From positions 1 through 38,914 of the forward strand of contig JAISXK010000029.1 of the NCBI GenBank assembly GCA_031270585.1: a stretch of DNA of 38,914 nucleotides, written 5' to 3'. The DNA is from Clostridiales bacterium (GTDB lineage: Bacteria > Bacillota > Clostridia > Christensenellales > CAG-138). A program made the translations under genes and the position numbers. Positions 1,132 through 26,780 of this stretch are shown in pieces (the stretch's first letter is position 1; each line of letters opens with the position of its first letter). The notes beneath the pieces are model-generated. The model saw nothing but the letters and a program-made list of their open reading frames with translations, made no database searches and was not told where the DNA came from.

Positions 1132-3183
1132 ATGTCTCAATCCAGAAAAAAAGCCAACAAGAGCAAGAAGAGCCGCAACTATAAAAAACCGCCAACTATT
1201 TCTCAACCTGTTAAACAGGCGGCACCGCTCGATTTTGATACGACCGAAAAGATCAGGGCCGAACAAAATCTCAACAATTATCTTACGTTGCTGTCTTTGG
1301 TTCGCACGCAGATATTTTTAGTTGTTTCTACTTCCGACACCCCGTGCGGGCTTGCACCGGCGCAATTGTTTACTTCCTTTCAACAAAAATTAGGGGCGCG
1401 GGTTTACCTTGGCGATAAATTCCGTTGCCCATACATTTTTGTTTTAGATAGTGGCAAAGTCGTCTATGAAAATATAGTTCACCCATCGACCGGCGCTCTT
1501 AGCATTGACCGGAAATTCGGCGAGTACCATATTCAGGCTCGTGCTTGCAGCTTTCTGAAACTTTCAGTTCTTGGTGCAAGTATATCCGTTAACAATACAT
1601 TTTCGGATTCAATAGGGAGAGGACTCAATTTTGCGGTATTTGACAAGGCTAATGGAGAAGTAATAGACTTTGTCAACTTTGATACGTATTGCGCCGAAGT
1701 TCCTGTCAGGCGGGCTTCGGTATTAAGGAATTTACTATCAAAATTTACACACTATTGTAAAGCGATAGGGGTAATTTATATTTCTGTCGGTAATTTATCT
1801 ATACCGAAAGAAGAACGCCTTCAAACCGAAAACGAGCGCAACATTTTGAAATACGGAATATTGCGGGAAGCGATTGCAATCAGTAAGGATGTTAACGCTT
1901 CGGCACTTGGCGCGTTCTATCATGACCAATCCGATATCGCTGATGTATTAACGGCTCCGAAATCTTACTCTAACCATAACGGCGTACGAAGATTTGAGGA
2001 TTACTATGGCCGGCGCGTAACCTGTATCGGTGGCATAAGAAAAACTGCAGGAGTCCCAAACGCCGCAAGCCGCAGCATATTCATGTTTGGCGGTTGTAAG
2101 ATTTTCGGCGTTGGAAATGCAGACGAAGACACTGTTTCTTCTAAATTGCAAGAACTCCTTAACGCTAACGGGCATTTGATACGCGTATACAATTACGGTT
2201 TCTATCAGAAGAGGGCCGGGGCTGCAAGCTACGAAGAGATAGAAAAGTTGCTTTATTCATTGCCTGTGAAAGCGGGAGACATCATCGTTTCTGATACTTA
2301 CGCTGAAAATTGCGGTCATATTGATTTGAGCAAAGTTATAGAAGAATTGCGCGGAAAAGGCGAAAAAGGGCCGGAATTATTTTTTGATTTACATGCTCAC
2401 TATACACCCGCAGCAAACACAATCATAGCACATAAAATATTTGAAAATCTCATTGAAACCGGTTATTTTATGACCGGTGATAAAATTCCGGCTCAGACCG
2501 CTGATGCCCTCCTCCCCCCGCGAAATGTTACAAATAGCGGCGAACCAGAGTATTTGCGTAAGTATAAATCCTTGCTTCGCGCATTATACTCGTCAGTCGG
2601 CAAGCCGCAAAATTGTGGCGCAATCGTAATGAATTGCAATCCATTTACAAACGGGCACCGGTATTTGATTGAAACTTGCGCCAAAAGGGTTGATTATCTG
2701 TTCGTGTTTGTAGTGCAAGAAGATAAAAGCTACTTTAAGTTTGATGACCGTTTTGATATGGTACTTGGCGGTATTAGCGATATAAAACATGTAATCGCAA
2801 TACCGAGCGGTCAATACGTTCTTTCTTCACTGACTTTTTCGGAGTACTTCAATAAATCCGCGTTACAGGATAAGAAGATAGATGCATCGCAAGACATACG
2901 GATATTTGCGGAAGAAATCGCTCCGATTTTAAAGATCAAAATTCGGTTTGCCGGTGAAGAGCCTCTTGACGCTGTCACGAAACAATACAACGAAGCGATG
3001 TCCGTTTTGCTTCCGCAGTACGGAATTATATTTGAAGAAATACGAAGGATTGAGCAAGACGGTCAGGTTGTTTCAGCTTCACGGGTTCGCGCGTTGCTTA
3101 ACGATGAGAATTGGGAGAAAATTGCCTTGCTTGTTCCGCCTGCGACCCTGGCGCATTTAAGAAAGCAGACGCCGCATTCTTGA
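1132..3183 (+). CDS. Multidomain protein: unassigned ~490-aa N-terminal region fused to a citrate-lyase-ligase (CitC)-type adenylyltransferase domain
   Basis: 683-aa ORF with a CAGGAG SD. The C-terminal ~190 aa (from about nt 2610) read AIVMNCNPFTNGHRYLIE..VFVVQEDKSYFKFDDRFDMV..IPSGQYVLSSLTFSEYF..RFAGEEPLD. This matches the CitC C-terminal domain, including the (T/H)xGH nucleotidyltransferase motif. The N-terminus has a Lys/Arg-rich tail (MSQSRKKANKSKKSRNYKK) and regions I cannot assign. The gene is very AT-rich for this window. Confidence 0.65.
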   Translation: MSQSRKKANKSKKSRNYKKPPTISQPVKQAAPLDFDTTEKIRAEQNLNNYLTLLSLVRTQIFLVVSTSDTPCGLAPAQLFTSFQQKLGARVYLGDKFRCPYIFVLDSGKVVYENIVHPSTGALSIDRKFGEYHIQARACSFLKLSVLGASISVNNTFSDSIGRGLNFAVFDKANGEVIDFVNFDTYCAEVPVRRASVLRNLLSKFTHYCKAIGVIYISVGNLSIPKEERLQTENERNILKYGILREAIAISKDVNASALGAFYHDQSDIADVLTAPKSYSNHNGVRRFEDYYGRRVTCIGGIRKTAGVPNAASRSIFMFGGCKIFGVGNADEDTVSSKLQELLNANGHLIRVYNYGFYQKRAGAASYEEIEKLLYSLPVKAGDIIVSDTYAENCGHIDLSKVIEELRGKGEKGPELFFDLHAHYTPAANTIIAHKIFENLIETGYFMTGDKIPAQTADALLPPRNVTNSGEPEYLRKYKSLLRALYSSVGKPQNCGAIVMNCNPFTNGHRYLIETCAKRVDYLFVFVVQEDKSYFKFDDRFDMVLGGISDIKHVIAIPSGQYVLSSLTFSEYFNKSALQDKKIDASQDIRIFAEEIAPILKIKIRFAGEEPLDAVTKQYNEAMSVLLPQYGIIFEEIRRIEQDGQVVSASRVRALLNDENWEKIALLVPPATLAHLRKQTPHS

Positions 3184-3252: not shown

Positions 3253-5187
3253 TCATTGACCAAGCGCGCGGCCCAACGCCATTCCGTCGGCAAAAGAGCT
3301 CAACGCGGCGCCGCCAACCGTTACCTCGCCAACGGCATATAAGCCTTCGATCGGCTGTCCCTGCCCGGTTATCACGTTACAGTTCTGGTCAAACAGCAAT
3401 CCGCCCAGCGTGATATGCACCGAAGGGGCGCAGGGCGAGGCGTAAAAAGGCCCTTCGGTCAGTATTTCGGTTCCGTTGAAAACGCTGCGCCCGAATTCCG
3501 CGTCGGTATGTGATGTTACGGCGGCGTTAAACGCCTCTACGGTGTTTTTTAAAGTGGCGGCGTCAACGCCCATTTTACCCGCCAGTTCCTCAAGCGTGTC
3601 CCCCGCTATGACAGTCCCTTTTTCAATCAGGTCGCCCACGGGATACCCGCCCGCCATTCCATCGACAACGCCGCTGTTGTTCGCGTCCGCGATAGAATAG
3701 GCCATACCGCCCGGCTGGTTCAAAATCGCGTTGGACATATCGTTGCGTGATCTTGTTTCGTCTACAAACCGCTTGCCCTCTTTGTTGACCAACAGCGCCC
3801 CGTTTGGGTTGATGCCGCCGCTCAGACTCCCGTCTTTGGGGTTCGCTATCGGGAAGAGCATATACTGATCCATGAGGGCCACACCCGCCCCCAACTCCTG
3901 CGCCATCAGAATGCCGCTGCCGACCTGCGCTTTCGTATTCGTTGATTTAATGGTTTCATCAAGGCTTTCCCACTGCGTATTATACTGCGCCAGCATCTTT
4001 CCGTTTGCGGAAAAACCGCCGGTGGCAAGAACGACGCCCCGCTTCGCGCGAACGGTATATGTCGTGCCGTCAACGCCTTTGGCCGTCACGCCGACAACTT
4101 TTCCTCCTTCTTCGATCAGCGATACCGCAGATGTTTCCGTCATGATCTCAATGGGAAGTTTTTTTTGCGCCATCTCGTTTTCAAGCGCCTTGAAATAGCC
4201 TACCCCCATGATCCCGCCCTTTACGGTGCTCCAGCGGGGCCATGGAAAACCGATTATGATTTGAAGCTGTTGGAACTCGGCGCCCATCTCTTCAAACCAG
4301 CGGCATACCTCGCCGCTTTTTGTGGCGTACCCTATCAAAGAGTCGTCGGGTCTTCCCAGCATCAAAAGATGGTATTGCATGGCGAGAAGCTCCTTGGAGT
4401 CAAAAACATAGTCCGCCCCGGATTTTAAATATGCCGCGTAGTCCTCTTTTACTTTCTTTTGCCATTCGCTCATCAGCGCGTTATCGCCGGTATCAAGGGC
4501 AAGCAGCGACTCCAGTTCGGCCGCGTATCCCTCATTTGTAGGCGGGCGTAATGCCTCCGGCGCGTCCATGTATTCCAAAAAGCCGCCGCTTACGATGGCG
4601 TTTCCGCCGATAGTGGATTGCGTTTCCAATACGACGACGGATTTCCCGCTCGCTTGTGCGAAGCTTACCGCAGTGGACATGCCGGACGCCCCGGCGCCTA
4701 CGACGACCAGTTCCGCCTCTTTTTCAACGACCGCGTCGCTTTTTTCACGCAATGCCGGCGCGCTGATTTTATCCATATCCGCGCAGTAGTCGGAAACGGC
4801 GTCCTTTACGGCGTCCATGATGGCGTAGGATGTGACCGTCGCACCGGATAATGAGTCTACCCGCACGCTCTGCTTTTCTACGATGCGGCCGGGAACTTGC
4901 TCCAAAGCCGCATCCGTGACGCCTATTGTTTCATTCTGGGAAACAATCTTTACATCAACAATCTCTTCCTCGGTCACGATTACTTCTACCGTTACGTCTC
5001 CGTTTCTCCCCATCGCGCTGCCTGTGTAGGTTCCCGGTTCAAACAAGCGCGAAGAGGGTATGGCTTCCGCCGACGGCGTCTGCGCCGCAGGCGCCTCGGC
5101 TTCGCCGGCCGGGTCTTGCGCAACAGAGCACCCGAAAGAGCCAATCACAAGCAATACCGCGATAAAAATAGCTATCCGTTTTTTCAC
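3253..5187 (-). CDS. Extracytoplasmic lipoprotein flavoprotein reductase (FMN_bind domain + FAD-binding fumarate/urocanate-reductase-like domain), paralog 1
   Basis: The lipoprotein signal peptide ends in the lipobox GSFGC. The FMN-binding domain carries the flavinylation motif DSLSGAT (nt 4837-4857). The FAD dinucleotide fold is VVVGAGASGMSTAV, and the C-terminal motifs are HITLGGL and GLYAVGE. The ORF track starts at 5208, but AGAGGAGG sits 7 nt before a GTG at 5187, so 5187 is the likelier start. Confidence 0.8.
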   Translation of the reverse strand: MKKRIAIFIAVLLVIGSFGCSVAQDPAGEAEAPAAQTPSAEAIPSSRLFEPGTYTGSAMGRNGDVTVEVIVTEEEIVDVKIVSQNETIGVTDAALEQVPGRIVEKQSVRVDSLSGATVTSYAIMDAVKDAVSDYCADMDKISAPALREKSDAVVEKEAELVVVGAGASGMSTAVSFAQASGKSVVVLETQSTIGGNAIVSGGFLEYMDAPEALRPPTNEGYAAELESLLALDTGDNALMSEWQKKVKEDYAAYLKSGADYVFDSKELLAMQYHLLMLGRPDDSLIGYATKSGEVCRWFEEMGAEFQQLQIIIGFPWPRWSTVKGGIMGVGYFKALENEMAQKKLPIEIMTETSAVSLIEEGGKVVGVTAKGVDGTTYTVRAKRGVVLATGGFSANGKMLAQYNTQWESLDETIKSTNTKAQVGSGILMAQELGAGVALMDQYMLFPIANPKDGSLSGGINPNGALLVNKEGKRFVDETRSRNDMSNAILNQPGGMAYSIADANNSGVVDGMAGGYPVGDLIEKGTVIAGDTLEELAGKMGVDAATLKNTVEAFNAAVTSHTDAEFGRSVFNGTEILTEGPFYASPCAPSVHITLGGLLFDQNCNVITGQGQPIEGLYAVGEVTVGGAALSSFADGMALGRALGQ

Positions 5188-5235
5188 AAGCCGACCTCCT
5201 CTTTTCATAACATATTGGGCACGTACCTAAGGTTT

Positions 5236-5304: not shown

Positions 5305-6134
5305 TCAATCAATAGGTATCCATGCCAATACGTAATCCGAGGGGTCTTCCGGCGCTATGCGCGTAACCACTTTATTTGCTATCGAAATGCTCAGTATATC
5401 TCCGGTTACACGCAATCCATTCGCTTCCATCAATTTTAGACTTGGCACCGTCATGGAATAATAATCCCTGGCGTGGCCGCTGACGCGGACAATCGTCTTC
5501 ACGCAGCGTCTCGGATGATAATATGTTATGTACGGGCTGTTTACTGTGGAAAGAAAGCCGATCTCTCCGGCAAAAATCGCCAGTCCGGGTTCCACTACGT
5601 TATCCGGCCCTATATCTTCTTTTTTCGCAAGGCCGGAAAGCATGGTGATGGGCAACAAGCCGGTCCATTCGCCGATAAACTTGCGCGCGTCTTTGCTTTG
5701 CAACGCTTTCCTGTTGTTTGTGCAGGTTAGCCTGTAAAGCGGAGGTCTGTCTTCAATTGTTATTTTTTCGCACAATTCGGAAATTTCCGCGAGCCACGCG
5801 CGCTGCCGCGCAATCGCCCGTAAAAAGGCGATATTTTTGTCCACCTTCTTCTCTATTTCCCGTTTTTGACGTTGAAGCGCCGCGTCTATTCCGTTTATGT
5901 CGGCGCCGGCGACAATTTTTGCCGCTTGCCGTATGGGTATGCCCAGTTTGATGTAATTGCGCAATTGTATGCCGCGCTGCAACTCCGGGAAATGAGATAG
6001 TATCTGTAACCATTTTTCTCGTCCTTTACGTTTGGGAGCGCCCCCTTTTTTTCGTACATGCGTATTGCCTGTTGTGACACGCCCATCAGGAGGCAAAGAT
6101 CGCTCATTGTCAGAATCAAATCATGTTCCAGCAT
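5305..6134 (-). pseudogene. MerR-family regulator with GyrI-like effector domain, disrupted by a frameshift
   Basis: The HTH part MLEHDLILTMSDLCLLMGVSQQAIRMYEKKGALPNVKDEKNGYRYY is read from ATG 6134 (GGGGGGA SD) in one frame. The remainder, ..SHFPELQRGIQLRNYIKLGIPIRQAAKIV...YVLAWIPID, continues in the frame offset by one nucleotide (ORF 5305..6096). The two frames switch around nt 5994-6003. Both halves align with the intact paralog at 20601..21401. Confidence 0.7.
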
Positions 6135-18472: not shown

Positions 18473-20452
18473 TTACGCGCCTTTGGCGGCGTTGCCGCCA
18501 GCTATTTTACCGTTTACAAAGATATCCGCAATGGCGTTGCCGCCCAGGCGGTTGCCCGCGTGGAAGCCGCCCGTCACTTCGCCCGCCGCATAAAGGCCGG
18601 GGATGATTTCGCCAGATTCACTCAATACATGCGTGCCGGTGTCGATGTTTAGCCCGCCCATGGTATGGTGAATGGCCGGCGCGCGCGGTGTTGCGTAATA
18701 GGGCGCGGTATCCACCTTCAGGTTGAAGTTGGTTTTTCCCGTGTCCTCATCCTTGGCGCCATCCACATAGCTATTGTATTTTTCCATCTCTTCCACAAGC
18801 ACGGCGGGATCGATATCGATCAAACGCGCCAGTTCCTCCAGCGTATCCGCGCGGTGAACGCGCCCGTTCTTCACTTCTACCTCGGGGTCGGTCAGCCATT
18901 TGGCCTCCTCCGCGATATCCGCGTCCGCAATCATGTAAAACATGCCGTCCGGCTGCTTAAACGCTTCAATCGCCAGCGTGTCGCGCGGGGATACCTCGTC
19001 CACAAAGCGGCGGCCTTCGTTGTTTATGAAGATATAGTTCGCCGCAAAGCGCGGGATCAGCCCCGTAAAGAGGTCGCCTGTCTTCAGGTCGGATGTGGGC
19101 ATCATCTGCGCGTAACCCATGCCCACAAGGCCCGCCCCCGCTTCAAGGCCCATCGCAATGCCGTCGCCGGTAGAACCGGATGCGTTTGTGGTCTTCGCGT
19201 TATCGGGGATATCGCCCCAATAGTTGTCATATTCCTGCACCATTTTTGTGTTGCTGCCAAACCCGCCCGTCGCCAGCACGACGCCTTTGCCGGCTTTGAG
19301 CGTAACCTTCGTTCCGTCCGCCTGCGTGGCGTTCACGCCGATCACCTTGCCGTCTTCGATTATGAGCGATTTGGCGGCGGTCTCCAGCATGTATTCGTTG
19401 CCCGAATCGAGTATCAGCCGCCCCAGCTTTACCGCGTACTCCTGCCCCTTGGGGTAATCCGCCGGCGTGTGCCCGCGCCGCCACATGGCGCCGACAGGCT
19501 GGCTGACGGTGGGCTGCCAGCTGATACCCTTTTCGGAAAGCCAGTTCACCGTATCGAGCGCGTTGAGGCACATGCTCTGCACGAGATCGAATATGCCATA
19601 GATTTCGGTGCCATCCAACCCTTTGCGCGCGCCGTAATAGTAGGTGTTGATGATGTGCAGCTCGGGGGAGTCAAACAGGTAAGAGCGATCCGTCGCCAGG
19701 TACTCCTTGAGCTGCCCCTGAAGGGTTTTGAATGTTGCGCGGTATTCCTCGGGGAAGGCGTTCGCGTCCATATCCATAAACATCTGCAGCGTTTCCGCCT
19801 CGCCCGCGTCTGCGGGATGCCCCTTTTGCCATTCGGGTTCGGCCGCGTTCAGCACGCCGCCGGAAAGCATGGTGTTGCCACCCAACGCCGCCGTCTTTTC
19901 GATCAGGATAACCTTAGCGCCCTCGTCGATGGCGGATACCGCCGCCGCGAGACCGGCGCCGCCGCCGCCCACTACGATTACATCCGCCGTTTTCTCCACA
20001 TCGGCGCCCGCTTGCTTATGCTGCCCCGCGCGTTGCCGCCATTCTGCGGGGTCGCCGCCGGCTTCCGCGACACAATCGGCCACTGCGGAAATGATGGCGT
20101 ATTGCGTGATGGTGGCGCCCGTCACCGTATCCATTTGTAAGGACTGGTATTCCATGATGTTCGCGGGTACCCGTTCAAACGCCGGATCGGATATGATGGA
20201 ACTCTCCTCATGCTCCGCGACGCTGATAGCGGTGATGCCGTTTTCATCAAACGTAACATCCACCACCACCATGCCGTTTCGGCCCGTCGCCGTGCCCTGG
20301 TATGTGCCGGGCGTGAGTCCCGCCGCAGGAACTGGAGTGGCTTGCGGCGCCGGCGCAGTTTCCTGCGGCGCCGGCGCGGGCGTTTCCCGCTGGCACGCGG
20401 CCAGTGAAAGCGCAAGTAACAGAACCATCGATATGGCTATCAACCGTTTCAT
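18473..20452 (-). CDS. Extracytoplasmic lipoprotein flavoprotein reductase (FMN_bind + FAD-binding domain), paralog 2
   Basis: The signal peptide carries the lipobox LAAC. The flavinylation motif DTVTGAT lies at nt 20111-20131. VVGGGGAGLAAAV, HHTMGGL and GLYAAGE are present. A GAGGAGG SD precedes the start. Confidence 0.8.
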   Translation of the reverse strand: MKRLIAISMVLLLALSLAACQRETPAPAPQETAPAPQATPVPAAGLTPGTYQGTATGRNGMVVVDVTFDENGITAISVAEHEESSIISDPAFERVPANIMEYQSLQMDTVTGATITQYAIISAVADCVAEAGGDPAEWRQRAGQHKQAGADVEKTADVIVVGGGGAGLAAAVSAIDEGAKVILIEKTAALGGNTMLSGGVLNAAEPEWQKGHPADAGEAETLQMFMDMDANAFPEEYRATFKTLQGQLKEYLATDRSYLFDSPELHIINTYYYGARKGLDGTEIYGIFDLVQSMCLNALDTVNWLSEKGISWQPTVSQPVGAMWRRGHTPADYPKGQEYAVKLGRLILDSGNEYMLETAAKSLIIEDGKVIGVNATQADGTKVTLKAGKGVVLATGGFGSNTKMVQEYDNYWGDIPDNAKTTNASGSTGDGIAMGLEAGAGLVGMGYAQMMPTSDLKTGDLFTGLIPRFAANYIFINNEGRRFVDEVSPRDTLAIEAFKQPDGMFYMIADADIAEEAKWLTDPEVEVKNGRVHRADTLEELARLIDIDPAVLVEEMEKYNSYVDGAKDEDTGKTNFNLKVDTAPYYATPRAPAIHHTMGGLNIDTGTHVLSESGEIIPGLYAAGEVTGGFHAGNRLGGNAIADIFVNGKIAGGNAAKGA

Positions 20453-21446: not shown

Positions 21447-21965
21447 TTACCGCTCTACAAACACAACGGCGCAATCCATAAGCGCCGCCTTTACCTGATC
21501 GTATGTCGCTTTGATGGCATGGTTATCAATCAACTGCCACACGCCGCCCGGCGTATCGTTTTGCAGTATGGCATACTTTAAGTCTTGCAGCGGCACGACC
21601 TCGCCGTTAAAGCGCACGGCGTCCTCGTCCACCTCCAGCACGAGCGCCGCGTCCTTTGCGGGAGCCGGCGTTTCTATGGCGGGCGTTACGGGCGGCGTGG
21701 ACAAAGCCTCGCCTGTGGCGGGCGTTTCGGCCTGCAGGGACGCAGGCGCTCCCGCAGCCGGCCCAAACACGGGCAGCCCGCCGCCGCCAAACAGGCCAAG
21801 CGCGTAGGCCGCGACGCCAAGCAGCAGGGCAATCGCGAGCAACGCCGGCCATTTTACGCCTTTGCGCCTTTTTCTTTTGTTCGCGGGCTTCTCTTTACTT
21901 CCCCTTTTATCCGGCGACGCTGTGTTTCCTTCACTATTTGGCGCTTCCATCGTTTCCTCCTCCAT
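21447..21965 (-). CDS. Membrane-anchored protein: basic N-tail, one TM, Pro/Ala-rich linker, ExbD-periplasmic-domain-like C-terminus
   Basis: 172-aa ORF; the start may instead be M6 at 21950, after GGAGGAGG. It has KRKRRKGVK followed by the TM segment WPALLAIALLLGVAAYALGLF. Next comes a linker PAAGAPASLQAETPATGEALSTPPVTPAIETPAPA. The C-terminal LVLEVDEDAVRFNGEVVPLQDLKYAIL....WQLIDNHAIKATYDQVKAALMD resembles the ExbD/TolR soluble domain pattern. Confidence 0.5.
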   Translation of the reverse strand: MEEETMEAPNSEGNTASPDKRGSKEKPANKRKRRKGVKWPALLAIALLLGVAAYALGLFGGGGLPVFGPAAGAPASLQAETPATGEALSTPPVTPAIETPAPAKDAALVLEVDEDAVRFNGEVVPLQDLKYAILQNDTPGGVWQLIDNHAIKATYDQVKAALMDCAVVFVER

Positions 21966-22005
21966 CCTGATGCGTTTTTATTAAAACGCGTTTATATGTA
22001 TGGTC

Positions 22006-22554
22006 TTATTGCGAATCATACTCCGCCGCGTACACATGCGCAAGGTGCTTTTGCGATTGTACGGCGTTTGCAACCAGGACGTAATCCGCCTGATAAATCT
22101 TGTTTCTGTCGTATAAAAACACGATAAGCACCACCTGCGCGTCACTTTTTTCTATCTGCGCGCGCAACGCCGCGCATAGCGCGTCGGCGGCGTATTCTCT
22201 GTTCTGCCAATCAAGACCGATGGCGGGCAGGCGCTCTTCGTCCGCCTCCATCAATATGCCGCGCGCGCCGGCGTCCTCCCGCACGCTGATGGTGAGCACA
22301 AGGCTGTTTTCTTCCAGCGCGGCGCGGCCCGTCTCCATGCGTAAAAACGCCCTGTTTTCATCGAGCAATCTCTCGTTCTCGCGCCTTAGCGCACTCAGTT
22401 TGGCATTGGCCGTCCGCCACGCCGCAGTCTGCGCTTCGGCTGCGGCGTTTAGTTCGTTTAATTTGTCCCCCGTTTGCGCAAGTATGACGAATACGATGAT
22501 GAGTATGACATCCAGCAGCGCCGTCAGCTCGATGGTTATGCCTTTGTTTCGCAC
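22006..22554 (-). CDS. ExbD/TolR-like protein with inserted coiled-coil-like segment
   Basis: GTG start after a GGGAGGAAG SD. ITIELTALLDVILIIVFVIL resembles the ExbD/TolR TM helix with its conserved Asp (D15, nt 22510-22512). An Ala/Glu/Leu/Arg-rich segment of about 55 aa follows, then a C-terminal domain. The gene overlaps the upstream gene by 19 nt. Confidence 0.55.
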   Translation of the reverse strand: MRNKGITIELTALLDVILIIVFVILAQTGDKLNELNAAAEAQTAAWRTANAKLSALRRENERLLDENRAFLRMETGRAALEENSLVLTISVREDAGARGILMEADEERLPAIGLDWQNREYAADALCAALRAQIEKSDAQVVLIVFLYDRNKIYQADYVLVANAVQSQKHLAHVYAAEYDSQ

Positions 22555-23069
22555 GGCGCTTCCTCCCTGAGCTTTTGGCTCCGCTCCAAATACAGCGAGA
22601 TGTTGCTGTTGTTTTCTTCCATACGGGGCGCAAGGAAACCATCCAAAAACTTAAACGCGATGCCGAATACCAGCCCCCAGAACGTGGATGTCAGCGCCGC
22701 AAAAAAGTTTTGCCGCAGGTTGACCAAATCCTCCACCATGGGGATGAGCGACACCACCGTGCCCAATATGCCAAGCAGGGTAAATATGCCGGTGAGGTTT
22801 TCGTATATGGCGTATATGCCGTTTACGCGCTTTCGCATGGCTACAAGCTCGCCCTCGGAAACTTCCTGAAACGCGCGTTTCATTTCATCATTTTTCAGCA
22901 CATGCTCAGGCAAAAATATGGTTTTGTGCAGTTTATTGTGCAGACCCCCCGCAAGTTTGCGCGCCGTTGTATAGCAGCAGGCGTTTATGCACGCCACCAG
23001 GAATATGATGATGTCGTATCCCAAAAGATTGTCCCACACCACGGAAAAAACGCCCGCCCAATCGCTCAT
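22536..23069 (-). CDS. MotA/TolQ/ExbB-family ion channel protein
   Basis: 177 aa with three TM segments. LTGIFTLLGILGTVVSLIPMV and FFAALTSTFWGLVFGIAFKFL match the MotA_ExbB signature (LGLLGTV ... AL.tT..GL). A GAGGT SD precedes the start. Confidence 0.7.
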   Translation of the reverse strand: MSDWAGVFSVVWDNLLGYDIIIFLVACINACCYTTARKLAGGLHNKLHKTIFLPEHVLKNDEMKRAFQEVSEGELVAMRKRVNGIYAIYENLTGIFTLLGILGTVVSLIPMVEDLVNLRQNFFAALTSTFWGLVFGIAFKFLDGFLAPRMEENNSNISLYLERSQKLREEAPCETKA

Positions 23070-23096: not shown

Positions 23097-24092
23097 TCAT
23101 TTGTCGCCCATTGTCAACCGCGCGCCGTTCACCGCACCATTGCCGGTTTCCCCATTGCCGGTTTTCTCCTTGCCGGTTTCCCCATTGCGGGTTGCCTGCC
23201 GCCCCATTGCCCGTCGTCCTTCCCCCAGTTCGCTTATCACAATGGCGCCGGCAATCAAAAGCGCGCCTATGACAAACCGCAGCGAAAACGGCTCGCCCAA
23301 AAACACCACGCCCGCCAAAAAGCCAAACAGCGCTTCGGTGCCCAAAAGCAAGGACACGTGCGAAGATTGCACATAGCACATGCCGATGTTTTGCACGCCA
23401 AGCGCGTATACCGTGCCCAGCAACACCAAATATGCCATGGAAAACACCACGTTGTCCGAAAACAGCGCCGCTCTGGAGGGCGGCGCTTCAAACGCCGCGC
23501 CCGTCAGCAATCCAAGCGCGCCCACCGATAAAAACTGTATTGCCGTTAGCGGCATCACATCCACGCCCGATTGCGTATAGCGCTCCACCGCTATCATATG
23601 CAGCGCAAAGAATATGCCGCAGCTCAGCGTCCACAAATCGCCCGCGTATACCCGCAGCCCTTCGTTGAGCGCGATGACGCCCACGCCCAAAAAGCAAACG
23701 ACGGCCGCTATCATAGCGCGCGCGCCGGGACGTTTTTTAGATAGCAGCAGGTGGAAAAACGGCACCAGCACCACATATGTGGCCGTAAGGAAAGCGTTGT
23801 TGCCGGCCGTCGTGCCCAATAGCCCAATGGTTTGCGTTAGGAACGCGCAAAAGAGCAAAACGCCCGCCAACAGCCCGCCCCTCAGGGTGCGTTTATCGGC
23901 CTTTTTTAGCTTTTTAAAGCAAATGACGCCCAATATAAGGCCCGCCGCCGAAAAGCGCACGCCCAGCAGCCAAGTGATGGGCAGATAGTCCAGCGAGGCT
24001 TTCATAATAACAAACCCGCCGCCCCATATGACGCCGCAGCTCAGCAGCCCGATTTCCGCCAATATCACTTTTTTCCTGTCGGATAGTTTCAT
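23097..24092 (-). CDS. EamA/DMT-family transporter with repetitive C-terminal tail
   Basis: 331 aa with about 10 TM segments in two EamA-like halves. The C-terminal tail reads ATRNGETGKEKTGNGETGNGAVNG. Confidence 0.8.
   Translation of the reverse strand: MKLSDRKKVILAEIGLLSCGVIWGGGFVIMKASLDYLPITWLLGVRFSAAGLILGVICFKKLKKADKRTLRGGLLAGVLLFCAFLTQTIGLLGTTAGNNAFLTATYVVLVPFFHLLLSKKRPGARAMIAAVVCFLGVGVIALNEGLRVYAGDLWTLSCGIFFALHMIAVERYTQSGVDVMPLTAIQFLSVGALGLLTGAAFEAPPSRAALFSDNVVFSMAYLVLLGTVYALGVQNIGMCYVQSSHVSLLLGTEALFGFLAGVVFLGEPFSLRFVIGALLIAGAIVISELGEGRRAMGRQATRNGETGKEKTGNGETGNGAVNGARLTMGDK
23137..23216. repeat. Imperfect ~15-nt tandem repeat inside the EamA 3' end
   Basis: About five units related to CCCATTGCCGGTTTC are present. 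They are in frame (5 codons each) and encode the GNGET-type repeats of the tail. Confidence 0.7.
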
Positions 24093-24109: not shown

Positions 24110-25423
24110 TTATTTAAACGCCTCGTAAATCGCCCGCACGGCAATTTCAAACTCATTGCTTTCCACGCCTACTATGATGTTCATCTCGCTGGAGCCCTGA
24201 TCGATCATGCGCACGTTTACGCCGGCCCTCGCCAGCGCCGTAAACAGCTTTGCCGATACGCCCACGGCGTTTACCATATCGCGCCCCACCACGGCGATGA
24301 GCGCCAGGTTGTCGTAAATTTCCACACTGTCCACGCTGCAAGCTTTTATGATGCCGTCTATGAGCGCCTTGCGCTTGCCCTCTATCTGCGCGTCCGACAA
24401 TACCAGCGACATGGTGTCTATGCCCGTGGGGATATGCTCGAAGGATATCGCAAGGTCGTTGAGAACCGAAAGCAGCCGGTAACCAAAGCCTATTTCGTTG
24501 TGCATATTGTCCTTCTCTATGGCGATGATGGTAAAGCCCGTGCGCCCGGCGATGCCCGTTAATTTGCCGCCATGCTCGCTCTCGCTGGAGTCGGGCACGA
24601 TAAACGTGCCGGCTTCATCCGGCGCGTTGGTGTTGCGCACATTGATGGGTATGCACGCCTGCCGCACGGGGAATATGGCGTCCTCATGCAATACGGTAGC
24701 GCCCATATAGGCAAGCTCGCGCAGCTCGGAATACGTAACGGTACCGATGAATCTGGGGTTTTTCACTATGCGCGGGTCGGCCATCAGGAAGCCCGACACA
24801 TCCGTCCAGTTTTCATATACATCTGCGTTCACGCCTCTTGCCACCACCGAACCCGTAATATCAGACCCCCCGCGCGGGAACACCTTGATGCCGCCGCCGG
24901 GAAGCGATCCGTAAAAGCCCGGTATCACCACGCGGCGCTTGTGGGCGACCTCCGTCTGGAAGGTTTTTTGGGTTTTTTCGGCGTCAAACTTGCCGTTTTC
25001 GCGGAAGAATATCAAACCGGCCGCGTCCATAAACGCAAAATTGAGATAGTCGGCCAGCAGCAGCCCGTTGAGATATTCGCCGCGGCTGGCGGCATAGTCG
25101 GCGGACGCGCCGTCGTTGATATCCTGCCATACGGTTTTCAGGTGGCTGCGTATATCCACGCCAAGCCGCAGTTCCTCGGCGATATCGATATACCGCTGGG
25201 CGATGATGTCAAACTCCTCTTCAAAGAGCCGGCCCTCGCTTGCCTTCGCCTGGCAGCGGTATAAAAGATCCGTTACCTTTTCATCCTTATAGGTGCGTTT
25301 GCCGGGCGCCGACGGCACCACAAACAGGCGGCCCTCATCCGCCTCGACAATACTTTTTACCTTTATAAATTGTTTGGCGTCAGCGAGCGAGCTTCCGCCA
25401 AATTTTACTACCTTCAGCTTCAT
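24110..25423 (-). CDS. Aspartate kinase (monofunctional, with C-terminal ACT domains)
   Basis: MKLKVVKFGGSSLADAKQF... carries the kinase KFGG motif, and the C-terminus is ACT-like. GGGGGA followed by 5 nt then the ATG at 25423 marks the start. The track ORF extends to 25579 but overlaps the upstream gene. Confidence 0.9.
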   Translation of the reverse strand: MKLKVVKFGGSSLADAKQFIKVKSIVEADEGRLFVVPSAPGKRTYKDEKVTDLLYRCQAKASEGRLFEEEFDIIAQRYIDIAEELRLGVDIRSHLKTVWQDINDGASADYAASRGEYLNGLLLADYLNFAFMDAAGLIFFRENGKFDAEKTQKTFQTEVAHKRRVVIPGFYGSLPGGGIKVFPRGGSDITGSVVARGVNADVYENWTDVSGFLMADPRIVKNPRFIGTVTYSELRELAYMGATVLHEDAIFPVRQACIPINVRNTNAPDEAGTFIVPDSSESEHGGKLTGIAGRTGFTIIAIEKDNMHNEIGFGYRLLSVLNDLAISFEHIPTGIDTMSLVLSDAQIEGKRKALIDGIIKACSVDSVEIYDNLALIAVVGRDMVNAVGVSAKLFTALARAGVNVRMIDQGSSEMNIIVGVESNEFEIAVRAIYEAFK

Positions 25424-25439
25424 GCGTAATCCCCCAATG

Positions 25440-26780
25440 CTAAATGATCCTCCTGCATTCCATGTAATAACGTTTTTCGTTGGCTTCGCCCATAGAAAAC
25501 GTTTTGCGGGGCAAAGCGCCATCATAAACCACGGTTTTAAACAGCGCGGATTTTTGCATGGAGGGCAGCAAAAACCCAATGGCGCCGGGTTGCCCGGCCA
25601 GGTTTTTCATAACGAACTCCCCATGGATATAATCCACCTCGCCGGGGGCTTGCACCACGGCGTCTATTGCGCTTTGCAGCGTGCCCACGGCAAGCTGCCG
25701 GGCGGGACGGTCTACGCGTATAAACCCGCAACGCTCCCCGGTATAAAACGGCAGTATATGCGCGGAGGACATATCGCCCTTTGCGCTTTCCGCAGCGGCG
25801 CTGCACAGATCGCTATTTTGGCAATACGTAAGCGTGGCGCCGCCGTTTTCCGCCTGCATGCGGGCGGTGATGGCCCGCAGGGTTTCTTCCGGCCGGACGC
25901 GCAGCAGTATGCGGTGGATGGGCTCGAACTCTATGCCGTCGTCGTGCACGTTTTCAATTTCCACCAGCGCGTAGCGCGCGGGGTGGTCGTTTAGGGCAGT
26001 ATGCGGCAACGTTTTTTTGATATTCTCCCAGACGGTTTTCGCTGTGGCGAACGAATGGTTGCCGTCGCCCATGGCAAACAGCAGCGGAGCCTGCCCCGCC
26101 CCATACCGCGCGGCAAAGGCGTCTTTATCCGCAAGGGCTTCAAGCGCCGCTATCACGGCCTCAATACGCGCCGTATCGTCCACCAGATACCCCGTTACAC
26201 GCCCGCCCCGCTGCATCAAATCGGTATCGTACAGCACGCGCGGCTGCCCTGCGGCGTATAGCGGTTCGATCACCGTGCGGCCGGGGTCGTCTATGAGCAC
26301 GAGTATGTGCGGTAATTCTATCGGCGCCCCTTCGCGTATGCGAAGCCGGGGCGGTATGCGCTCCACCACGGTGCCCTCCGTGGCGCGTATAAGCGTTTTC
26401 GCGCCCTTTTGAAAATCGTAACGCTCCAGATCCAGCGCCAGCATAAGGCCCAGCCGTTCTTTTTTGGATACGCGGCGGCGCACCAGTATAAAGCCCTGCG
26501 GCAAATTTTCAAGCAAGCCTTCGTCCAAATACGATTGCATTGTGCGTTTCACCCGCGCGATGCGCTCGGTTTCTCCCGGTTTGTTGAGGTACGCTTCGGG
26601 CAAAATAAGCTTGAGCGCGGAGGGCGCTTCGCCCACGATCCGCCCGGTTTCTTCCCAATATTCCGTCTGGGCGGTATACTGGTCGCAGGCGACCACCGCC
26701 CACTTGTATAAATCCACGCCCTCTTTGGGCAGCAATACGGACGGCACCTGCACGCCTATCGTATTTTCATACCGTTTCAT
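25440..26780 (-). CDS. DUF1015-family protein (function unknown)
   Basis: 446 aa with a GGGAGG SD. I assign it to DUF1015/COG4198 by recollection of the family, which is often found next to serA. The assignment needs an HMM check. Confidence 0.6.
   Translation of the reverse strand: MKRYENTIGVQVPSVLLPKEGVDLYKWAVVACDQYTAQTEYWEETGRIVGEAPSALKLILPEAYLNKPGETERIARVKRTMQSYLDEGLLENLPQGFILVRRRVSKKERLGLMLALDLERYDFQKGAKTLIRATEGTVVERIPPRLRIREGAPIELPHILVLIDDPGRTVIEPLYAAGQPRVLYDTDLMQRGGRVTGYLVDDTARIEAVIAALEALADKDAFAARYGAGQAPLLFAMGDGNHSFATAKTVWENIKKTLPHTALNDHPARYALVEIENVHDDGIEFEPIHRILLRVRPEETLRAITARMQAENGGATLTYCQNSDLCSAAAESAKGDMSSAHILPFYTGERCGFIRVDRPARQLAVGTLQSAIDAVVQAPGEVDYIHGEFVMKNLAGQPGAIGFLLPSMQKSALFKTVVYDGALPRKTFSMGEANEKRYYMECRRII

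Follow-up and report, generated by a model that had tools for sequence, protein, structure and literature searches.

A conserved three-gene unit of Clostridia with a MotA/ExbB-family channel protein, a candidate ion-driven machine for a single-membrane envelope

To our knowledge, understanding of 5:2 ion-driven motors is confined to cases with an identified load, namely the flagellum, TonB-dependent uptake, Tol-Pal, gliding and the type IX secretion system, and Zorya. Here we describe three adjacent genes, A, B and C, in a 38,914-nucleotide (nt) stretch of a Clostridiales genome (GenBank assembly GCA_031270585.1, contig JAISXK010000029.1, positions 1 to 38,914; "the window"), which share the gene order of the ExbB-ExbD-TonB and TolQ-TolR-TolA systems: a channel protein, an Asp-bearing bitopic protein and an anchor-plus-linker protein. 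Among described relatives, GldLM is confined to Bacteroidota (PMC9389320), and Ton components of monoderms have been rated "likely non-functional" by a recent survey (PMC12204202). A further survey, which sampled 205 genomes, describes "generic ion transporter" (GIT) clades, non-flagellar MotAB homologues of unknown function (PMC12505986, also a preprint). The trio fits the condensed cytoplasmic domains, missing plug and diverse add-on domains reported for these clades; the available text of that survey mentions no Clostridia, coiled coil or conserved third gene (PMC12505986), whereas here the partners B and C are defined and the family is widespread in Clostridia.

22536..23069, minus strand: gene A, 177 amino acids (aa), ATG start; MotA/TolQ/ExbB-family membrane protein, presumed pentameric ion-channel subunit
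22006..22554, minus strand: gene B, 182 aa, GTG start; bitopic protein, presumed dimeric axle subunit
21447..21965, minus strand: gene C, 172 aa, ATG start as listed; bitopic protein

Our overall best explanation, to which we give a probability of roughly 0.5, is that the trio encodes a self-contained ion-driven machine of the MotA/ExbB "5:2 motor" superfamily, fitted to a single-membrane envelope. A sequence-only reading of the window had proposed an orphan Ton/Tol-like ion motor. That interpretation was largely right, and its "Ton/Tol" label and its assignment of the C end domain to the ExbD soluble domain found weak support.

The three tightly spaced minus-strand open reading frames (ORFs) lie where that reading had placed them in the ORF listing, with a 19-nt overlap between A and B and a 40-nt gap between B and C (ORF coordinates and direct reading of the sequence), 27 nt from the stop of an EamA-family gene to the start of A, and the Asp15 codon of B at 22510-22512. 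The start/stop overlap of A and B is retained in relatives, mostly as a 4-nt overlap. The GTG start of B is preceded by a GGGAGGAAG box, and the resulting N-terminus, MRNKGITIELT, agrees with the starts of its homologues. For C, the true start is probably the second ATG (21950), giving 167 aa, because GGAGGAGG stands directly upstream of that codon.

Distribution and conservation of the trio

More than 646 database homologues of A were found, about 169 aa long and at 45-66% identity; where a homologue is named, which is rare, the annotation reads "MotA/TolQ/ExbB proton channel family protein", from Lachnospiraceae. An alignment-based scan, made with two very family-specific patterns over a single genome for each GTDB species, located A relatives in 460 genomes; the best 80 belong without exception to Clostridia (Lachnospiraceae, Oscillospiraceae and many Ruminococcus), in line with the clostridial host suggested earlier from gene content. 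Carriers include the isolates Ruminococcus albus KH2T6, Ruminococcus sp. XPD3002 and Hominimerdicola aceti, and R. flavefaciens is also among the genomes returned.

On the contigs of three A homologues, A is followed by a protein of ~190-200 aa and then by one of ~140-160 aa with no recorded Pfam match, and the flanking genes of the three contigs are unrelated to one another. We assembled a set of 89 loci (88 fetched, plus the window), in which a homologue of B follows A in 87 and a homologue of C in 82; homologues of C were detected across 60-82 loci. A, B and C are thus adjacent in 82-87 of the 89 loci, a recurrence that argues against a chance arrangement and answers positively the question of conservation raised by the sequence-only reading.

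Neighbouring genes were clustered from ORFs of at least 110 aa within 6 kb on either side and from ORFs of 35-115 aa within ~1 kb. A conserved fourth gene was considered and rejected: besides A, B and C, no family is common to more than 21 of the 89 loci, and no conserved small ORF was found beside the trio among the 35-115 aa ORFs. The next commonest neighbours (patatin, metallophosphoesterase, M20 peptidase and shikimate enzymes) reflect lineage synteny.

An exhaustive profile search with B returned 821 clusters at 50% identity with E<=1e-3, 368 of them with E<=1e-10, and almost all of the 150 clusters listed have lengths of 165-225 aa. A protein of 2998 aa with 13 matches to the B profile (P0299) is a low-complexity repeat protein and was discarded as irrelevant. 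Judged from these searches, B and C are real, populous protein families that have no curated model. Median dN/dS values (Nei-Gojobori, 47 close locus pairs) of 0.09 for A, 0.15 for B and 0.22 for C indicate that all three are under purifying selection. Locus comparison thus indicates that the trio has been kept as an operon of its own in hundreds of gut and rumen Clostridia with a single membrane.

Of 76 non-redundant loci, 40 have a strong sigma-A-type promoter in the 120 nt upstream of A (5 ± 2 in shuffled sequences), its end typically ~26 nt before the start codon. These are ordinary sigma-A-type -35/-10 elements, and inspection by eye, with no formal sigma-D/E/K scan, revealed no alternative sigma-factor motif upstream; no Rfam family was found upstream of the trio in 12 loci. 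Upstream of the window trio itself there is no recognisable promoter, and transcription of this copy probably continues from the EamA gene. One Lachnospiraceae locus (L012) carries an RT-5 RNA (RF03026, 93.8 bits) at 4958-5063 on the minus strand, ~1 kb upstream of its trio, to which it is probably unrelated.

These data bear on whether the trio could be a relic, that is, a decaying, non-functional Ton/Tol remnant of a double-membraned Firmicutes ancestor. Such a remnant would agree with the verdict on the Ton components of monoderm Clostridia (PMC12204202), with the lack of a receptor or Pal/TolB partner in the window and the loci, and with a Thr that the window copy of A carries at a near-universal Pro. 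The dN/dS values argue against it, as do functional residues that are invariant over hundreds of clusters, the retention of operon structure and of an own sigma-A-type promoter, and the architecture of B and C, which is derived and conserved rather than decayed; we consider a relic very improbable. Purifying selection on A, B and C, together with housekeeping-type promoters, bears on the view that Ton components of monoderms are likely non-functional.

The channel protein A and its Asp-bearing partner B

Protein A passes the gathering score of PF01618 (MotA_ExbB) with 34.3 against 22.9 bits (E 2.3e-8, residues 59-153), establishing the family membership that had been read from two short motifs. 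Kyte-Doolittle hydropathy also gives the three hydrophobic segments noted earlier:

22962..23033, minus strand: A hydrophobic segment 1, residues ~13-36 (Kyte-Doolittle window analysis)
22734..22799, minus strand: A hydrophobic segment 2, residues ~91-112, motif IFTLLGILGTVVSL (hydropathy, family alignment)
22632..22706, minus strand: A hydrophobic segment 3, residues ~122-146, invariant motif ALTSTFWGL (hydropathy, family alignment)

Because positive residues come after segment 1, the topology of A would be N-out with a short external N-terminus, leaving a cytoplasmic loop of ~55 aa and a tail of ~30 aa. Like ExbB and TolQ, A would therefore combine three segments and an outward N-terminus with a condensed cytoplasmic part. 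Alignment of the family shows that T104 (in LLGILGT), T127-S128-T129 (in ALTSTFWGL), E72 and R79 are invariant, the last two lying within the ~55-aa cytoplasmic stretch; T104 and T127-T129 presumably match functional residues of ExbB and MotA, where polar Thr/Ser residues and a Pro of the last two membrane helices line the ion path, an equivalence that we draw from the MotA alignment.

When the A family profile was compared with PDB sequences, the best matches were to the core of transmembrane helices 3 and 4 (TM3-TM4) of MotA and PomA (E 3.5e-5 to 1e-2), with segment 2 aligned to MotA helix TM3 (aPafGmiGT), and no ExbB or TolQ chain was found at E<1. NCBIfam gave weak MotA/MotP matches only. 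The "Ton/Tol-like" label is therefore not specifically borne out by the sequence of A, which lies nearest MotA/PomA, while the topology and size of A are closer to ExbB/TolQ than to MotA with its four helices; A is nevertheless shorter than E. coli ExbB and TolQ by ~60-70 residues.

In a Ruminococcus group (L040, L042, L053, L055, L058, L060, L066, L074, L079, L081, L084 and L086) the longest ORF for A measures 227-276 aa instead of the usual ~170, and these proteins may carry an extra cytoplasmic C-terminal tail; in L040 the A-homologous region stops ~65 codons short of the ORF stop. In some other loci A measures 199-243 aa, perhaps because ORF starts were over-extended.

Protein B consists of three parts:

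22474..22533, minus strand: B membrane helix, residues 8-27, motif ELTALLDVILIIVF, with Asp15 at 22510-22512 (hydropathy, family alignment)
22306..22473, minus strand: B extracytoplasmic helical stalk, residues 28-83, Ala/Leu/Glu/Arg-rich (AlphaFold2 model)
22009..22305, minus strand: B C-terminal alpha/beta head, residues 84-182 (AlphaFold2 model)

The family motif of the membrane helix is ELTxLLDVILIxxF. In alignments of 40 and 59 sequences E9, L10, T11, L13, L14, D15, I17, I19 and F22 are invariant, and Asp occupies position 15 in 187 of 187 motif-matching homologues. PF02472 (ExbD) matches were obtained in 32 of 40 B family members (best E 2.4e-6) and begin at the membrane helix wherever a region was reported (window B and P0255); one cluster representative carries a precomputed PF02472 match. 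With hhalign, the B helix aligned onto the membrane helix of E. coli ExbD (sequence entered by hand) at E 8e-4, the essential Asp included, so that the likeness of this single N-terminal helix to that of ExbD/TolR, first seen by eye, is upheld by alignment. An ExbD-type partner thus exists in a large group of Clostridia, together with a conserved third protein, C. That B has stayed unannotated is explained by its membrane helix being the only recognisable part.

An AlphaFold2 model of B built on 59 homologues (predicted local distance difference test, pLDDT, 89.6) shows a single helix from residue 3 to 83, with block pLDDT values of 82-94 in the stalk. The heptad-like segment of about 55 aa described in the sequence-only reading is therefore real in the model, extending ~56 residues beyond the membrane helix. 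Its length differs among homologues, in which B measures 171 to 302 aa. The head has the order strand-strand-helix-strand-helix-strand and contains the near-invariant residues Y148 and D149. Foldseek of the head against the PDB gave no ExbD, TolR or MotB among the top 50 matches, and the B family profile found nothing among PDB sequences, so that an ExbD/TolR or MotB domain, recovered neither by profile search nor by Foldseek, was rejected as the identity of the head. An RNase-H-like relationship was likewise set aside, its Foldseek matches being marginal (E ~1e-3, TM-score 0.3-0.49) and taken as generic alpha/beta topology. NCBIfam gave B two matches of 14-16 bits against cut-offs above 320, nothing meaningful, and no OmpA-family Pfam match was found in window B or in 40 relatives.

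B therefore differs from ExbD/TolR in the insertion of a helix of 56 to 170 residues and in a head that has no ExbD/TolR structural match. Like the B-type subunits of GldLM and PorLM, it would serve as a long shaft, here presumed dimeric, that passes work outward (PMC9389320). The shaft of GldM comprises four globular domains, that of B one long helix capped by one head; no Gld/Por Pfam family matched A, B or C at E<=1.

In combination, the conserved core of A and the invariant Asp helix of B are the hallmark of ion-driven ring-and-axle units (PMC9389320), and A and B probably form a working unit of this kind. One such unit is the flagellar stator. MotAB, PomAB and MotPS share with the trio the superfamily, the TM3-TM4 core, a membrane Asp in the B-type subunit and adjacent, overlapping genes. 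A divergent stator for a flagellum encoded elsewhere would account for the MotA/PomA proteins being the best solved relatives of A, with no ExbB/TolQ at E<1, and for its weak NCBIfam matches, and many Lachnospiraceae are motile. The trio, unlike these stators, has no fourth helix, no plug and no OmpA-like anchor: A contains three hydrophobic segments, and its ~55-aa loop means that the torque-generating cytoplasmic domain is missing, while B carries a long helix and an unrelated head in place of a peptidoglycan-binding domain. The trio also includes a third conserved gene and has no flagellar gene context, with no flagellar family among the annotated families common to at least 6 of the 89 loci, and it occurs in R. 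albus and R. flavefaciens, which are described as non-motile. A flagellar stator is thus a very unlikely identity for A and B.

Nor do the data favour a Zorya-like anti-phage module, or another accessory or mobile system with a MotAB-like sensor. MotAB homologues can act in defence, and the GIT survey names Zorya as a distant relative (PMC12505986); the long helix of B loosely recalls the elongated parts of Zorya. PADLOC, with its ZorA and ZorB models included, gave no match at E<=1 for A, B or C, and no ZorC/D-like or nuclease partner is conserved across the loci. The neighbours are housekeeping genes in lineage-stable synteny, A does not have the long cytoplasmic tail of ZorA, and the long helix here sits on B and is predicted to be external. 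We attach almost no weight to a defence role.

Protein C and the proposed direction of the output

The third protein has the following parts:

21780..21851, minus strand: C membrane helix, residues 39-62, without Asp (hydropathy, family alignment)
21651..21779, minus strand: C low-complexity Gly/Pro/Ala/Thr linker, residues 63-105 (composition, family alignment)
21450..21650, minus strand: C C-terminal domain, about 65-67 aa, weakly like the ExbD periplasmic domain (sub-threshold PF02472 matches in relatives)

The Lys/Arg-rich tail recorded in the sequence-only reading comprises 11 Lys or Arg within the first 38 residues, and the TonB/TolA-like layout it saw is likewise present: an anchor helix, a Pro-rich linker and a small C-terminal domain, encoded by the third gene, in the tonB/tolA position. 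C shares with TonB and TolA a cytoplasmic tail, one helix, a Pro/Ala-rich linker and a small end domain. A Gly-rich motif of the GLGxG type follows directly after the membrane helix, and the linker varies in length and sequence among homologues. The end-domain motif of the family is DDHAIKAxYDEV, for which window C has DNHAIKATYDQV.

No Pfam or NCBIfam match was found for window C. A TonB_C or TolA domain gave no Pfam match at E<=1 in window C, nor did one appear among the top 25 families of 40 relatives. The anchor helices of TonB and TolA have a conserved Ser/His motif of the SHLS type; direct reading of the C helix, WPALLAIALLLGVAAYALGLF, reveals neither Ser nor His, and the motif is thus absent. 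C is in these respects unlike TonB and TolA. PF02472 matches occur in 16 of 40 C family members (best E 3.6e-4), and in 6 of 10 individually scanned members they cover profile positions ~28-113 of 128, the periplasmic part of ExbD, to which the end domain is thus weakly similar at sub-threshold level. A match of the C N-terminus to FliL (E 2e-4) was rejected as a product of the Lys-rich tail and membrane helix, and a paralogous relationship between B and C found no support, hhalign giving a probability of 0.5% between the family profiles. The longest C of any locus has 228 aa (L033). Stalk and linker lengths were measured in 56 loci; L012 has the longest B of these (254 aa), and its C is 198 aa long with a very long linker of PTQA repeats.

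How such a machine could work is suggested by the distribution of mass. Since A is nearly devoid of cytoplasmic mass and B and C have conserved external parts, the output would lie outside the membrane; without cytoplasmic mass, A would not work on a cytoplasmic rotor, as MotA does, or on a cytoplasmic tail of the ZorA kind. A would form the channel-bearing ring, presumably a pentamer, with the conserved Thr/Ser residues of its two C-terminal helices, and B the central axle, presumably a dimer, whose paired helices would make a shaft of ~8 nm or more. Inward flow of protons or Na+ would protonate and deprotonate Asp15 of B in turn. The stalk would be rigid (~56 residues, or ~8 nm, in the window and up to ~170 residues in relatives) and would place the head in the zone of the wall. 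C, with its own membrane anchor, flexible linker and small ExbD-like end domain, would act as transducer or anchor in the position of TonB/TolA; alternatively, the helices of B and C may pair within the A ring. In what we take as the likeliest working model, modelled on present views of Ton/Tol, one external domain, the B head or the C end domain, would grip the wall while A-B rotation pulls or winds the other partner, converting the proton motive force into mechanical work on a wall-associated target such as peptidoglycan, the remodelling machinery or a wall-bound protein. The 5:2 stoichiometry, the rotation, the anchored part and the target are all points that we infer. Outward, wall-directed force transduction involving C is put forward tentatively, at somewhat less than even odds.

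Several results weigh against a machine of this kind. No target gene for a motor was identified in the 89 loci. Window B, which the sequence-only reading had likened to ExbD, misses the ExbD threshold of PF02472 (11.6 bits, E 0.3, cut-off 25.4) and matches over the membrane helix only; wall-binding by its head is a guess, as the head has no convincing structural relative. As to the proposal that the C end domain is the ExbD soluble domain, the matches in 16 of 40 relatives speak for it, but individual scores reach 12-21 bits, below the 25.4 cut-off, the end-domain profile recovered no ExbD or TolR among PDB sequences, and hhalign against E. coli ExbD and TolR (sequences entered by hand) is in register and not significant (E 0.09-0.34). 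C was folded without an alignment, a fused B+C profile search having yielded B proteins only, and the resulting single-sequence AlphaFold2 model is unreliable (pLDDT 58.7). The lengths of the B stalk and the C linker correlate weakly (Spearman rho 0.37, p 0.004), a value for which phylogeny is uncontrolled and some boundaries are misplaced, and which we give no weight. In the window copy of A, finally, position 97, just before LLGILGT, is Thr (ACC, 22779-22781, minus strand) versus Pro in 119 of 120 database homologues and in every one of the 86 motif-matching homologues from the loci, and this copy may be functionally altered or impaired, or the base may be an assembly error. A single A-to-C change in the codon would bring back Pro.

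The missing target also suits a gated ion channel or sensor, in which A and B would conduct protons or Na+ in response to an envelope signal such as wall stress or pH and deliver no mechanical output. A would then need hardly any cytoplasmic domain, and the conserved B head and C end domain could bind a ligand outside the cell. Characterised members of the superfamily, however, all couple ion flow to mechanical work (PMC9389320). The stalk of B is helical in every homologue and variable in length, as expected of a spacer or shaft rather than of a sensor, and a constitutive leak would be costly. We regard a pure channel or sensor as unlikely and prefer the ion-driven machine.

Whether that machine is a Gram-positive counterpart of Ton/Tol, in which the B shaft and C deliver work into the thick wall, appears doubtful to us. 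Unlike Ton/Tol, the trio belongs to hosts that presumably have no outer membrane and has no linked receptor, TolB or Pal. Pfam scans bore out the earlier observation that the window holds no TonB-dependent receptor, TolB/Pal, flagellar gene or OmpA-like partner; receptors and TolB-Pal were also absent from the gene families common to related loci, the search covering these and the window rather than whole genomes. If the counterpart is real, it would be a housekeeping system in hundreds of gut and rumen Clostridia, it could supply work for wall remodelling at division or for moving material through the wall, and envelope-energising 5:2 motors would not be peculiar to double-membraned bacteria. 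More generally, if the load is the cell wall, the trio would represent a new way to energise the Gram-positive envelope, in hosts that are abundant in gut and rumen communities. A literature search linking Ruminococcus, Lachnospiraceae or Clostridia with TolQ, ExbB or MotA found nothing specific. The question has become testable with a defined three-gene unit, a point mutant at Asp15 of B and cultivable hosts.

Neighbouring genes and other features of the window

The window is an unremarkable part of the chromosome and contains asnB, type III glutamine synthetase (GSIII), pyrG, ahcY, H+-pyrophosphatase, aspartate kinase, ptb-buk and mreBC. GSIII, the H+-pyrophosphatase and ptb-buk had been named as context in the sequence-only reading and were found again; the T-box also named there was not, as no Rfam family reaches its gathering score within positions 1-38914. 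Links of the trio to its neighbours, offered there as speculation, found no backing: relatives of the EamA gene occur in 4 of 88 loci, all of one gene arrangement, with three of the four on contigs that encode an identical A protein, and relatives of the MerR, reductase and aspartate-kinase neighbours occur in none of the 88.

The repetitive tail of the EamA exporter corresponds to a 15-nt tandem repeat at 23137-23193 (3.8 copies, 83% matches) at the 3' end of the gene, which encodes an NGETG-type repetitive C-terminal tail. The aspartate-kinase ORF at 24110-25579 (minus strand, TTG start as listed) overlaps the upstream DUF1015 gene at 25440-26780 (minus strand) by 140 nt. As the Pfam kinase domain starts at residue 54, translation probably begins farther in, at the Met of MKLKVVKFGGSS.

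At 1132-3183 on the plus strand lies a 683-aa ORF of which only the last ~180 residues are accounted for, by a match to the citrate lyase ligase C-terminal domain; for the initial ~495 residues Pfam gives nothing at E<=1e-5. Minus-strand genes at 3253-5208 and 18473-20452 encode two paralogues of ~650 aa (34% identity), each with a lipoprotein-like signal sequence, an FMN_bind and a FAD_binding_2 domain; both resemble extracytoplasmic flavin reductases of the fumarate/urocanate-reductase type. Upstream of the second stands the MerR gene, to which the ORF upstream of the first (5305-6096) is not clearly paralogous.

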